Part shown: one piece after another, positions 6,306 through 14,361 of the stretch
Position numbering within the stretch: position 1 is the stretch's first letter
Layout: each line of letters opens with the position of its first letter
Source: a virus
Taxonomy: Duplodnaviria; Heunggongvirae; Uroviricota; Caudoviricetes
IMG/VR virus record: IMGVR_UViG_2654588181_000005
Location: 1 to 26,467 of that record
Strand: one strand, 5' to 3'
Length of the DNA stretch: 26,467 nucleotides
The notes under the pieces: generated by a model
Told to the model about the DNA's origin: nothing
Database searches by the model: none
What the model saw: only the letters and a program-made list of their open reading frames with translations
Position numbers and translations under genes: made by a program

Positions 6306-6725
6306 AATTATCTCCATTTTTACAAATGAACTTTGTTGATGCGGTGCCTAGTGCCTCCAGGTGACTGCAACCAGTTAACAATTACAGTCGGCTTTCCCAC
6401 CCAAACCAATAAGGACTAACATGACTTTTAACTGTGCCGCGTGCGCTTAGCCGCATTCACCGCATCACAAAATTCACTTTAAAAAGGGCGGACATCAGTC
6501 GAACTTCAAGAAAAAACTGATGCCGCCAAGACTACACACAGCAGTGTTGTTATCCACAACCGGAGGCGCACTCCCACCATTTAAATTTAACAGACAAGAC
6601 CGACTCTTTATGGATATCGGAAATGCGACTTCGTGTTGTGCCCGGTTTTATTTCACCACCTCCGGGCTTTGGTGGTTTCTGCTATACCCCTACAGCGAGA
6701 ATATTGAATTAATCCAAATAATGGA

Positions 6726-6878
6726 TTAGCAAGTATTTCTGGCAAGCCAGCGACGTGCGCCCGTTTCAGTTTTGAATGTCTTGCTTTTGGTATACGTCAT
6801 GGCGGTGAACGTTCCATCCTGGTTGGGGAACACGCCGCACACCAGGGATTCGTTATTGCCGAGGTCGATTTTTTGCAT
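6726..6878 (-). CDS. ydaF: Small Rac early protein (YdaF-like, 50 aa)
   Basis: Hand-translated: MQKIDLGNNESLVCGVFPNQDGTFTAMTYTKSKTFKTETGARRWLARNTC; symbol assigned from size and gene order. Confidence 0.55.
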   Translation of the reverse strand: MQKIDLGNNESLVCGVFPNQDGTFTAMTYTKSKTFKTETGARRWLARNTC

Positions 6879-6888
6879 TTTTCGCACC

Positions 6889-7023
6889 TCACATTTTGTT
6901 GTTGCGGATAGAGGCTTCTGCCTGCCAGAGATCCCAGTCGTTGCTGCGTAGAGCCTGTACAGCCTGGCTGTAAGTGATATCGCAACAATCCATCAAATAC
7001 TGAACTACTTCGTAATGCACCAT
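6889..7023 (-). CDS. ydaG: Small Rac early protein (YdaG-like, 44 aa)
   Basis: Hand-translated: MVHYEVVQYLMDCCDITYSQAVQALRSNDWDLWQAEASIRNNKM; symbol assigned from size and gene order. Confidence 0.55.
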   Translation of the reverse strand: MVHYEVVQYLMDCCDITYSQAVQALRSNDWDLWQAEASIRNNKM

Positions 7024-7192
7024 CTTATCTCTCCCCTTAACGCCGGGTGGCGGAACTAACTGCTGCACTGCAAAATTTGAATCCCGCCGTCATGTTCATA
7101 CGCCTCGGGCTGGCTACTTAACCCCTTACCACTGCCTGGTAACTCGAAGTATTGCCCGGCGTTCTGTGGGGCGGGGTGGGTGGTATGCTGGA

Positions 7193-7237
7193 ACTATAGG
7201 TAATGCCTAATTGATTGTCAATAGGCTATGCCTAATG
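7193..7237 (-). promoter_or_regulatory. Leftward early promoter (PL-like) with repressor-operator motifs
   Basis: On the minus strand: -35 TTGACA (7221..7216), 17-bp spacer, -10 TATAGT (7198..7193); ATGCCTAAT motif at 7203-7211 and 7228-7236; contains the 22-mer CATTAGGCATAGCCTATTGACA. Confidence 0.6.
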
Positions 7238-7330
7238 TTTTGGGTGTAACCTAATAGGTGATGGCGACAGGAGAAAGTGATGGGGGGTTAAATAACGGAA
7301 TCCAGGAGTTTTCCGTCAGACCATATAAGT

Positions 7331-7807
7331 TTAAGTTCCAGTTTTTGTGATGTTCTGGCTTTTCCGTTCAGATTCTAGAGCTTTCAGATACTTACCCACT
7401 TTCATTTCCATCGCTGCTATGTAGGCGCGAACATCGTGGTCAACCCAATCTGGTTCTGTAGCATTTCCAGATAACAGGAAAGCTACAATCGCTCTTATTT
7501 CATCAGAGGCTGCTTGATAAAGGTTGTTTATATCTAAAAGTTCACTTTTTGTATCTGAATTGGTGGGGGTTGGTATGGGGTATTCGTTAAGCCCCCAATG
7601 CTCTGGACCAACAACATCAGAAAAGAAACGCCATAATTCTGGAAGTTTATCTTTACTTATGGAGCCTTTCTTAATCCAGTCATAAATTGATGGTGGTTGG
7701 ATTTTGAAGTGGCGTGCGACCTCCGCCTTTGATTTGACGGATCCCGATGCGATTTTTTTGTTAATGGCCTGCTCTATCGCTCGGCCTAAGTCTTTACCAC
7801 TAAGCAT
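7331..7807 (-). CDS. racR: RacR prophage repressor
   Basis: 158 aa starting MLSGKDLGRAIEQAINKKIASGSVKSKAEVARHFKIQPPSIYDWIKKG (HTH); divergent from ydaS. Confidence 0.9.
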   Translation of the reverse strand: MLSGKDLGRAIEQAINKKIASGSVKSKAEVARHFKIQPPSIYDWIKKGSISKDKLPELWRFFSDVVGPEHWGLNEYPIPTPTNSDTKSELLDINNLYQAASDEIRAIVAFLLSGNATEPDWVDHDVRAYIAAMEMKVGKYLKALESERKSQNITKTGT

Positions 7808-7834
7808 TGCTTAATATTCTCCTATGCTCATTGC

Positions 7835-7906
7835 ATTAGGCAATCCCTACCTTTATCGCATTAGGCATAGCCTATTGACATTTATGTTAGGCGTCGCCTA
7901 ATATTT
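7835..7906 (+). promoter_or_regulatory. Rightward early promoter (PR-like) with operators in the racR-ydaS intergenic region
   Basis: -35 TTGACA 7875-7880, 18-bp spacer, -10 TAATAT 7899-7904; ATTAGGCA(A/T) copies at 7835-7843 and 7860-7868; perfect palindrome TTAGGCGTCGCCTAA at 7887-7901. Confidence 0.6.
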
Positions 7907-7930
7907 CTGTGTGTTTTTGGAGTTCATTCG

Positions 7931-8227
7931 ATGAAAAAAGAGAACTATTCATTCAAGCAAGCTTGTGCTGTTGTCGGTGGGCAATCAGCAATGGCTAGGC
8001 TTTTAGGTGTATCACCTCCAAGCGTAAATCAATGGATCAAAGGGGTACGTCAATTGCCTGCCGAGAGATGTCCAGCAATTGAACGAGCAACAAGAGGTGA
8101 GGTTCTGTGCGAAGAGCTTCGTCCTGATATTGACTGGTCATATTTACGACGTTCGGCATGTTGTTCGCAGAATATGTCAGTGAAGCAACTAAATGACAGT
8201 AACAAATCCTCATTTGATCATACCTGA
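7931..8227 (+). CDS. ydaS: YdaS, Cro-like HTH protein
   Basis: 98 aa starting MKKENYSFKQACAVVGGQSAMARLLGVSPPSVNQWIKGVRQLPAERC. Confidence 0.9.
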   Translation: MKKENYSFKQACAVVGGQSAMARLLGVSPPSVNQWIKGVRQLPAERCPAIERATRGEVLCEELRPDIDWSYLRRSACCSQNMSVKQLNDSNKSSFDHT

Positions 8228-8249
8228 AACATCAAGAGGCAAATGATTC

Positions 8250-8672
8250 ATGAAAATCAAGCATGAGCACATCGAATCAGTGTTGTTTGCCCTGGCAGCC
8301 GAAAAAGGGCAGGCATGGGTAGCCAATGCAATTACTGAAGAATATCTGCGCCAGGGGGGCGGCGAATTGCCCCTGGTTCCAGGCAAGGACTGGAACAATC
8401 AGCAGAATATCTATCACCGTTGGTTGAAAGGTGAAACGAAAACGCAAAGAGAAAAAATTCAGAAGCTGATCCCAGCAATTCTGGCAATCCTTCCGCGCGA
8501 GTTGCGTCACCGACTCTGCATCTTCGATACCCTGGAACGCCGTGCATTACTGGCGGCGCAAGAAGCGTTAAGTACGGCAATTGATGCGCATGATGATGCA
8601 GTCCAGGCCGTTTACCGGAAAGCGCATTTCAGCGGCGGTGGTTCGTCCGGCGATTCTGTTGTTGTTCATTAA
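8250..8672 (+). CDS. ydaT: YdaT, toxic Rac protein
   Basis: 140 aa starting MKIKHEHIESVLFALAAEKGQAWVANAITEEYLRQGGG; immediately downstream of ydaS. Confidence 0.85.
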   Translation: MKIKHEHIESVLFALAAEKGQAWVANAITEEYLRQGGGELPLVPGKDWNNQQNIYHRWLKGETKTQREKIQKLIPAILAILPRELRHRLCIFDTLERRALLAAQEALSTAIDAHDDAVQAVYRKAHFSGGGSSGDSVVVH

Positions 8673-13683: not shown

Positions 13684-14205
13684 TGAAAATTCCTCAAGTT
13701 GGAGAGTTCTGGAACATTAAGGCGAGGTGGCCGTAATGCACCATCTGTAATCTTTTGATACTGACGTAATCGGGCCTGATGTGCAACGCCTTGCAAGTAT
13801 GTAACTCATTGAAAACGATCATTTTTATCTATTGACATCAAATGGCAAACTGTCATTGTGCGGCTATGGCAAGTGGCAAATGCTTATAAATCATATGGAT
13901 ATAAATAGTACAGAAAGAGTTGTTTTCTCTAGGATATGAGTATACGCCCAATGCTGATTGGTTGAATTTTGTTCTTGTTTTAAAGGGTAAGAGTTTAAAG
14001 TGTTGGCAGTGATGTATTGGATAGTTAGAATTGCTGTGGGTGCTTGAGGCTATCTGCCTCGGGCATGATCACCAAAGGTAGATAGAGAAAAGCCCCAGTT
14101 AACATTACGCGTCCTGCAAGACGTTTAACATTAATCTGAGGCCATATCTATGCGACACATAGAGATTAGCCTCTTACGGACCGAAAGGTCAAGGAGAAGC
14201 AGGCT

Positions 14206-14361
14206 ATGAAGCAGCAAAAGGCGATGTTAATCGCCCTGATCGTCATCTGTTTAACCGTCATAGTGACGGCACTGGTAACGAGGAAAGACCTCTGTGAGGT
14301 ACGAATCCGAACCGGGCAGACGGAGGTCGCTGTCTTCACAGCTTACGAACCTGAGGAGTAA
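14206..14361 (+). CDS. hokD: Hok/Gef-family type I toxin (HokD/RelF-like)
   Basis: 51-aa product MKQQKAMLIALIVICLTVIVTALVTRKDLCEVRIRTGQTEVAVFTAYEPEE; a short upstream ORF (14150-14209) ends overlapping the hok ATG, mok-like. Confidence 0.85.
   Translation: MKQQKAMLIALIVICLTVIVTALVTRKDLCEVRIRTGQTEVAVFTAYEPEE

Follow-up and report, generated by a model that had tools for sequence, protein, structure and literature searches.

The two copies of a 22-nucleotide (nt) element that flank the repressor gene racR in IMGVR_UViG_2654588181_000005 are very likely the cores of a lambda-type pair of operator-promoter modules in the immunity region of a Rac-type lambdoid prophage, with a predicted left operator and promoter (OL/PL) on one side of racR and the right operator and promoter (OR/PR) on the other. 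The entire 26,467-nt stretch is termed the window and all coordinates refer to it. The prophage is integrated at ttcA, and over positions 7000-8300 it shows 100% identity to Escherichia coli strain EC11 and about 98% to other Rac prophages. The right half of the pair is already published and experimentally established in E. coli K-12. The left half is an expected but apparently undescribed lambda-style partner; neither a left operator of Rac nor any operator or promoter downstream of racR is mentioned in the RacR literature searched, older subscription papers (Conter 1996, Lemire 2008, Jobling 2016) being outside that search, and an older description is possible.

The preliminary description of this DNA had reported identical 22-bp mirror elements around racR, and this was borne out. 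The element CATTAGGCATAGCCTATTGACA lies at 7859-7880 on the plus strand with its exact reverse complement at 7216-7237. A search of the window allowing up to three mismatches returned exactly these two matches, both with 0 mismatches, and none occurred in 100 dinucleotide-preserving shuffles. A repeat search recovered the same pair as 22-nt arms, 100% complementary, with 621 nt between them. Each element consists of a 13-bp palindromic RacR-type operator, TAGGC-N3-GCCTA, directly joined to TTGACA, and a promoter scan of both strands agreed with the earlier view that this hexamer closes each element as the -35 of an outward-facing promoter. The layout is the same on both sides (operator, TTGACA, 6-7 nt, second operator), with the last two bases of the second operator starting the -10 and the second operator lying 25 bp (left) or 26 bp (right) beyond the first. 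The features of the two modules are as follows.

7216-7237, minus strand: left 22-mer, operator OL2 plus leftward -35; exact reverse complement of 7859-7880 and the same in K-12.
7222-7234, no strand: OL2, TAGGCTATGCCTA, perfect RacR-type operator (0 mismatches) abutting the PL -35; position conserved in 10 non-redundant loci.
7197-7209, no strand: OL1, TAGGTAATGCCTA, 1 mismatch by motif scan, over the PL spacer and the first -10 bases; 25 bp from OL2, as in other loci.
7241-7253, no strand: candidate weak OL3, TGGGTGTAACCTA, 3 mismatches, 19 bp past OL2; low confidence, from repeat and motif scans.
7193-7221, minus strand: predicted PL, -35 TTGACA at 7221-7216, 17-nt spacer, -10 TATAGT at 7198-7193; 11 of 12 consensus matches, hexamers conserved across genera.
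7859-7880, plus strand: right 22-mer, operator TAGGCATAGCCTA (7862-7874) plus the -35 of the ydaS-ydaT promoter PydaST (7875-7880); from pattern and repeat searches, the -35 being experimental in K-12 (PMC9638921, PMC11879457).
7875-7904, plus strand: PR (PydaST), -35 TTGACA at 7875-7880, 18-nt spacer, -10 TAATAT at 7899-7904; 10 of 12 consensus matches.
7888-7900, no strand: published O1, TAGGCGTCGCCTA, over the PydaST spacer and -10 (motif scan; PMC9638921).
7837-7849, no strand: operator TAGGCAATCCCTA; the equivalent site bears the PR -35 in other genera (motif scan and locus comparison).
7801-7813, no strand: operator TAAGCATTGCTTA over the racR start codon, the published O3 (motif scan; PMC9638921).

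Read along the minus strand, the left module is TAGGCATAGCCTA-TTGACA-atcaat-TAGGCATTACCTAtagt, and along the plus strand the right module is TAGGCATAGCCTA-TTGACA-tttatgt-TAGGCGTCGCCTAatat, the capital TA opening the -10 in each case. With up to one mismatch allowed, TAGGC-N3-GCCTA occurs five times in the window against 0.42 expected, and five sites were reached in 0 of 100 shuffles. All five fall into two clusters, starting at 7197 and 7222 on the left and at 7837, 7862 and 7888 on the right; the operator-like sites at 7801-7813 and 7241-7253 are weaker. Ranked by consensus matches among the promoter-like sites of the first 12 kb, the leftward one is joint first (with an 11/12 site at 1491-1518) and the rightward one joint third. 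Of the smaller repeats reported earlier, the palindrome over the rightward -10 was recovered as TTAGGCGTCGCCTAA at 7887-7901, filling the spacer and covering the first 3 nt of the -10, and the claim of extra ATTAGGCAT copies held for one more exact copy (7203-7211, minus strand) but not for the site at 7835-7843, which reads ATTAGGCAA. A terminator scan also flagged 7222-7234 and 7884-7904 on the plus strand; both candidates were rejected as the operators themselves, and the left one is not on the sense strand of racR.

On the right side, a good deal is known from K-12. A single ydaS-ydaT promoter with -35 TTGACA and -10 TAATAT was mapped there by primer extension and -10 mutagenesis, and DNase I footprints of RacR yield the operator consensus (T/A)TAGGC-N3-GCCTA(T/A), with O1 over the ydaST promoter being occupied first, protected at the lowest RacR concentration, and O3 covering the racR start codon (PMC9638921). 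Binding of RacR to the 123-bp racR-ydaS intergenic region has been demonstrated by electrophoretic mobility shift assay and by chromatin immunoprecipitation with quantitative PCR (PMC5700373), and RacR is an octamer in solution according to size-exclusion chromatography (PMC11014345). The operator motif of the window is identical to that of the published operators O1-O3/O4, the right 22-mer corresponding to one of these plus the mapped PydaST -35; these studies are confined to the racR-ydaS side and attribute the octamer to four intergenic repeats (PMC9638921, PMC5700373, PMC11014345).

On the left side, OL2 reads ATAGGCTATGCCTAAT, a perfect core together with the A/T flanks of the RacR footprint consensus, and OL1 reads ATAGGTAATGCCTAAT, which matches nine of the ten core positions. 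The behaviour of the leftward genes under depletion of RacR is in keeping with a repressed promoter at this place, with ydaG, ydaF, kilR, ydaE, racC, recE/T, ralR, xisR and intR rising 40- to 100-fold or more; these studies left the RacR regulon open (PMC6765115, PMC11014345, bioRxiv 10.64898/2026.09.06.749655). The leftward genes are also induced when transcription of racR itself is blocked near its start (PMC6765115, PMC11014345), which argues against read-through from racR as the leftward source.

The left module is widely conserved. Genome loci for comparison were chosen by an encoded RacR-type DNA-binding domain (the N-terminal 75 residues of RacR are nearly invariant among homologues of 50-60% overall identity), and an operator pair 24-25 bp apart lies downstream of the repressor gene in 14 of the 18, four of the 14 being near-identical E. 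coli-type Rac copies, one of them in a contaminated metagenome-assembled genome (MAG). That copy (L006, JARKOR010000130.1) is a 5.2-kb contig binned as 'Candidatus Nanosynbacter' with a 99%-identical racR and E. coli-type operators, almost certainly E. coli contamination. Ten non-redundant loci, aligned on the first site, from Escherichia, Mixta, Morganella, Proteus, Erwinia, an uncultured proteobacterium, Achromobacter and Pigmentiphaga, have in common a 44-nt module, T-TAGGC-N3-GCCTA-TTGACA-N5-T-TAGGC-N3-GCCTA-nTAT, which carries 1.50 bits per column versus 0.34-0.50 in its flanks. The flanks are unrelated between distant bacteria, and the promoter hexamers are conserved to the same degree as the operators; the candidate OL3 is kept in the E. 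coli Rac lineage only. In the complete Klebsiella phage KpF5 the repressor is followed by a moron gene, a clear intrinsic terminator and then the module.

The same arrangement recurs in viral contigs. A scan of IMG/VR for the operator/-35 fusion TAGGCNNNGCCTATTGACA returned at least 120 loci and, among the matches listed, a repressor gene lies between two outward-facing full modules in 84 of 120, most paired modules being separated by 627-629 bp, a distance that rises to as much as 2.2 kb if further genes come after the repressor. In lineages with the most divergent DNA-binding domains (43-45% identity), on either side of the gene, the -10-proximal site has GCCTT in place of GCCTA and the operators are spaced 24 bp apart, which on comparison of the sequences is a left-right covariation. 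In Betaproteobacteria the RacR-type DNA-binding domain is fused to Peptidase_S24, making these proteins CI/LexA-type repressors, and the operator-promoter layout is the same. Such fusions were seen in Achromobacter, Pectobacterium and some E. coli proteins (L014 2501-3598, L017 2501-3601; P0103, P0105, P0113, P0120). Because TAGGC-N3-GCCTA operators are unchanged alongside the S24 fusions, the C-terminal domain of enterobacterial RacR looks like a domain swap onto a CI-type switch.

The exact identity of the two 22-mers, on the other hand, is strain-specific. In K-12 MG1655 the left copy is the same as in the window, but in the right copy a T of the non-contacted N3 spacer is replaced by C, so that the identity is 21/22 and the longest exact inverted repeat 14 nt; for this reason the 22/22 match is regarded as incidental and the shared operator-promoter design as the real feature. 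In the OR of other genera the repressor ATG is covered by one site, followed by TAGGCAATTCCTA joined to TTGAC and finally by the -10-proximal site. The OR of E. coli Rac retains TAGGCAATCCCTA without a -35 (TTGAC having been lost) and has an additional 25-bp unit, TAGGCATAGCCTA-TTGACA, which is absent from Mixta, Morganella, Proteus, Erwinia and Betaproteobacteria (window 7837-7880 compared with L008-L013) and gives the E. coli Rac-type OR its four sites. The sequence of the extra unit is that of the widespread OL2 type, and the perfect identity probably reflects copying of an OL2/-35 unit into OR.

This history could also be taken to mean that the left copy is a functionless relic of duplication or recombination, with the leftward genes being switched on indirectly through YdaS/YdaT or from another promoter. 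Such an origin would fit the perfect 22-nt identity, which suggests recent copying, the presence of the extra OL2-type unit in the E. coli OR and the standing of YdaT as a known activator. However, the position, spacing and sequence of the left module are conserved in lineages with dissimilar flanks, variants of OL and OR change together in the lineages that diverge most, and a box scan found no YdaT box near the left module, and a mere relic is therefore scarcely credible.

Comparison of immunity cassettes places the left module next to the point at which otherwise different prophages become alike. Window positions 7032-7188 are common to thousands of E. coli prophages that do not share racR. 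Four types were aligned: Rac, an unnamed immunity type (L003 and phage Tritos), phage Evi (CP-933P/PaaR2-type operators) and 640R1 (DicA-like repressor). Rac and the other three are homologous from about 7188, which lies a few bases past the predicted PL -10, and in each of the four the common leader is immediately preceded by a sigma-70-like promoter belonging to that cassette. As in Rac, the operator motif proper to each of L003, Evi and 640R1 occurs both at the leftward promoter and in the repressor/cro intergenic region (the Tritos region examined did not include the latter); reporter assays have verified PL and OL1-3 in the CP-933P type (PMC8630535). As the homology begins at about 7188, leftward transcription is predicted to start at about 7186-7189, and 7193-7237 would form the left edge of the immunity cassette. 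The leader concerned is the following.

7024-7188, minus strand: 165-nt untranslated leader of the leftward operon, common to prophages of at least four immunity types.

Conservation of the leader amounts to 85-100% for prophages of at least four immunity types and for phages Evi and Tritos, and to 76% for an Actinobacillus phage; most of the 3781 E. coli genomes matching the query contain it. It has a C-rich 5' end, an invariant GAACATGACGGC and a possible 18-codon open reading frame (ORF). A structured RNA in the leader was supported neither by the single-sequence fold (z = -1.55) nor by an alignment fold of seven leaders including that of the Actinobacillus phage (covariation term +0.8, one compensatory pair). 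A role of the leader in Rho-loading or antitermination is speculation. No Rfam family was found in the racR flanks or the leader, either at the gathering score across the whole window or at a permissive E-value across 6700-8300; these scans returned only RalA (1557-1735) and sok (14038-14208).

The sites at OL might bind RacR and yet have no promoter to control, serving instead as anchors for looping, which would strengthen repression at OR and autoregulation of racR, or as a roadblock keeping racR read-through from kilR, with the hexamers at 7193-7221 being inactive. The transcription unit of racR does run towards the left module, with a weak hairpin alone between them, and an octameric RacR is compatible with bridging.

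7293-7318, minus strand: hairpin of 8 pairs, 13 nt past the racR stop, followed by UUUAA (fold; low confidence).

Transcripts of racR may be weakly terminated by this hairpin before OL/PL is reached. Inspection by eye showed the stem to be kept in prophage L002 (86% identical), where it is longer by one G-C pair; the terminator scan did not detect the hairpin. Together with RacR bound at OL it may limit read-through from racR. However, Gamma- and Betaproteobacteria have kept not only the operators but also TTGACA and the -10, hexamers that plain anchors would not need; a promoter is found at the same place before the shared leader in four immunity cassettes, and leftward induction with racR transcription blocked at its start argues that read-through is not the source. 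Anchoring or blocking as the main role of the left sites thus appears improbable.

The proposal that OL/PL and OR/PR form a pair under one repressor is supported on the right by published experiments and on the left by the consensus match, the conserved module and the cassette edge. RacR dimers on both operators of a module would occupy the stretch from the -35 flank through the spacer to the -10, thereby excluding RNA polymerase. On the right this would account for the silencing of PydaST, and hence of ydaS-ydaT and the replication genes, which is shown in the literature. On the left, RacR on OL1 and OL2 is predicted to occlude PL at 7193-7221, and when RacR falls PL would fire through the 165-nt leader into ydaG-ydaF-kilR-ydaE-racC-recET-ralR-xisR-intR. 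We infer silencing of PL by RacR with good support from sequence, comparative genomics and the published derepression data. In this way one repressor would hold both early operons shut, as CI does in lambda.

The left operators could alternatively be used mainly by the Cro-like YdaS, damping leftward transcription after induction. The Cro-type proteins of lambda and CP-933P bind the operators of the repressor, those of PL included (PMC8630535), and YdaS represses its own promoter though not racR (PMC9638921). However, the left sites fit the footprint consensus of RacR, and lysogens without detectable YdaS keep the leftward operon silent (PMC5700373, PMC9638921). A left operator meant chiefly for YdaS is thus very unlikely. 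Use by YdaS is compatible with use by RacR and is most likely an addition to RacR-controlled OL/PL and not an alternative to it; YdaS probably shares the left operator sites.

Several points weigh against the paired arrangement or parts of it. OL1 has a mismatch in its core (TAGGT) and the third left site is degenerate; the left module was not seen in 4 of the 18 genome loci within the 2.5 kb examined; and the published RacR-binding fragments correspond to -186 to +85 of the racR start, with the left module outside them (PMC9638921, PMC5700373). Leftward derepression could be partly indirect, through YdaS or YdaT. The octamer was explained by its discoverers by four dimers on the four racR-ydaS repeats, for which OL is not needed (PMC11014345). 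Finally, distances between OL and OR range from 579 to 2204 bp between loci with no conserved helical phase.

The last two points bear on a less certain part of the mechanism, in which two dimers at OL would associate with two at OR, forming a loop of 640-690 bp with racR inside it. The centre distances in the window are 640 bp (OL2-OR2) and 691 bp. Because the distances vary between loci without conserved phase, the sequence gives no specific support for looping, such variation being uninformative for loops of this size. That RacR is a looping octamer, bridging OL1/OL2 to the PydaST operators over about 640-690 bp enclosing racR, is a tentative suggestion and somewhat doubtful.

The gene layout given earlier for the surroundings of racR, with ydaG, kilR and recET to the left and ydaS and ydaT to the right, matches the ORFs and their annotation.

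7331-7807, minus strand: racR, repressor gene, 158 aa (ORF list, RefSeq annotation of the identical strain, homologues).
7931-8227, plus strand: ydaS, Cro-like, rightward early gene (ORF list, annotation, family match).
8250-8672, plus strand: ydaT, CII-like, rightward early gene (ORF list, annotation, family match).
6889-7023, minus strand: ydaG, which opens the leftward operon (ORF list; annotated in RefSeq for the identical strain).

racR is divergent from ydaS, with four operator-like sites in the 123 bp between them, and YdaS matches the families P22_Cro and YdaS in a protein family search. Leftward from racR the genes are ydaG, ydaF, kilR, ydaE, racC-like, recE, recT, ralR, xisR and intR. 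The 44-aa YdaG matches a UBA-like domain below threshold (PF14555, E = 3.9e-4, 20.6 bits; cut-off 21.8) and is annotated in some genomes as a longer GTG-started form of 59 aa (7068-6889). In K-12, RefSeq annotates a small RNA, KilS, on the leftward strand in the kilR-sieB gap (L022 906-1003 = K-12 1418405-1418502), on which no paper was found in the literature searched; sieB is absent from the corresponding position in the prophage of the window. Elsewhere in the prophage, the sok antitoxin RNA at 14038-14208 (Rfam RF01794, 101 bits) adjoins a gene of the Hok/Gef family.

The box scan located the published YdaT box at 8243-8260. YdaT-dependent activation of the left promoter was rejected as a candidate, with no box near 7190-7260 and a total in the window not above chance. 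At 1491-1521 a near-perfect YdaT box, TTGATTATTTATAATCAG (one mismatch), overlaps the 11/12 promoter-like site (TTGACG, 16-nt spacer, TATAAT), directly upstream of the small antitoxin RNA RalA (1557-1735) and near ralR and xisR. This might be a promoter controlled by the CII-like YdaT, the number of YdaT boxes in the window being again not above chance.

Among known systems, the left half would be classed best with OL/PL of lambda and PL933P of CP-933P. As in lambda, the repressor gene lies between two outward-facing early promoters, and the -35 and -10 of both are overlapped by several palindromic operators that share one motif and are spaced 24-26 bp apart. An operator lies at or near the repressor start codon, the repressor transcript is leaderless, the repressor is octameric and the leftward genes include kil, recombination functions and xis/int; the S24 self-cleavage domain is shared by the Betaproteobacterial relatives of RacR. 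In contrast to lambda, Rac has a 13-bp operator (TAGGC-N3-GCCTA), two good sites in OL versus three (with four in the OR of E. coli Rac) and a distance between OL and OR of 0.64-0.69 kb versus 2.3-2.4 kb. The C-terminal domain of RacR is non-S24, so RacR probably lacks self-cleavage, and to our knowledge no antirepressor is known for Rac. An N/nut system is unrecognised in Rac, and YdaS does not repress racR (PMC9638921).

CP-933P of E. coli O157:H7 (PaaR2/YdaS/YdaT; PR933P, PRM933P and PL933P with OL1-3) is similarly lambdoid, with ydaS/ydaT and an octameric repressor (PMC8630535). Reporter assays there established operators on both sides and a PL with hexamers identical to those of PR (PMC8630535), whereas the left side of Rac is predicted from sequence. 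Phage Evi links the two, having the CP-933P operator type before the leader of Rac. CP-933P differs in its unrelated repressor and operators (GTTTAGTAA-type, 18 bp) and in the toxin-antitoxin pair after the repressor. RacR is also a named member of the Gifsy/DicA/RacR group of short, non-cleavable lambdoid repressors inactivated by antirepressors, with which it shares a length of about 150 aa and the silencing of recET orthologues in the lysogen (PMC3121763).

Several recent papers on RacR dissect the right-hand operators only, and a left operator-promoter would directly explain why the leftward arm switches on as RacR falls. E. coli K-12 has few essential transcription factors, RacR being one of them, and the leftward arm includes the cell-division inhibitor kilR, recET (used in recombineering), the toxin ralR and xis/int, which excises the prophage. 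The left module would provide a defined, mutable site for separating the effects of the left arm from the toxicity of ydaST, and offers an alternative, testable reading of the RacR octamer. If looping were true, OL would be needed beyond PL, for full silencing of ydaST and autoregulation of racR, and the published model of an octamer on four intergenic repeats would be revised; together with the conserved fused module and the swapped C-terminal domains (S24 protease or RacR-type), this would describe a compact, portable switch distinct from that of lambda. Current understanding would not be overturned; a lambda-like picture already assumed by specialists would be completed, and a layout of one DNA-binding domain, its operator and a fused promoter, found across two proteobacterial classes with the C-terminal domain exchanged, may aid the annotation of prophage switches.

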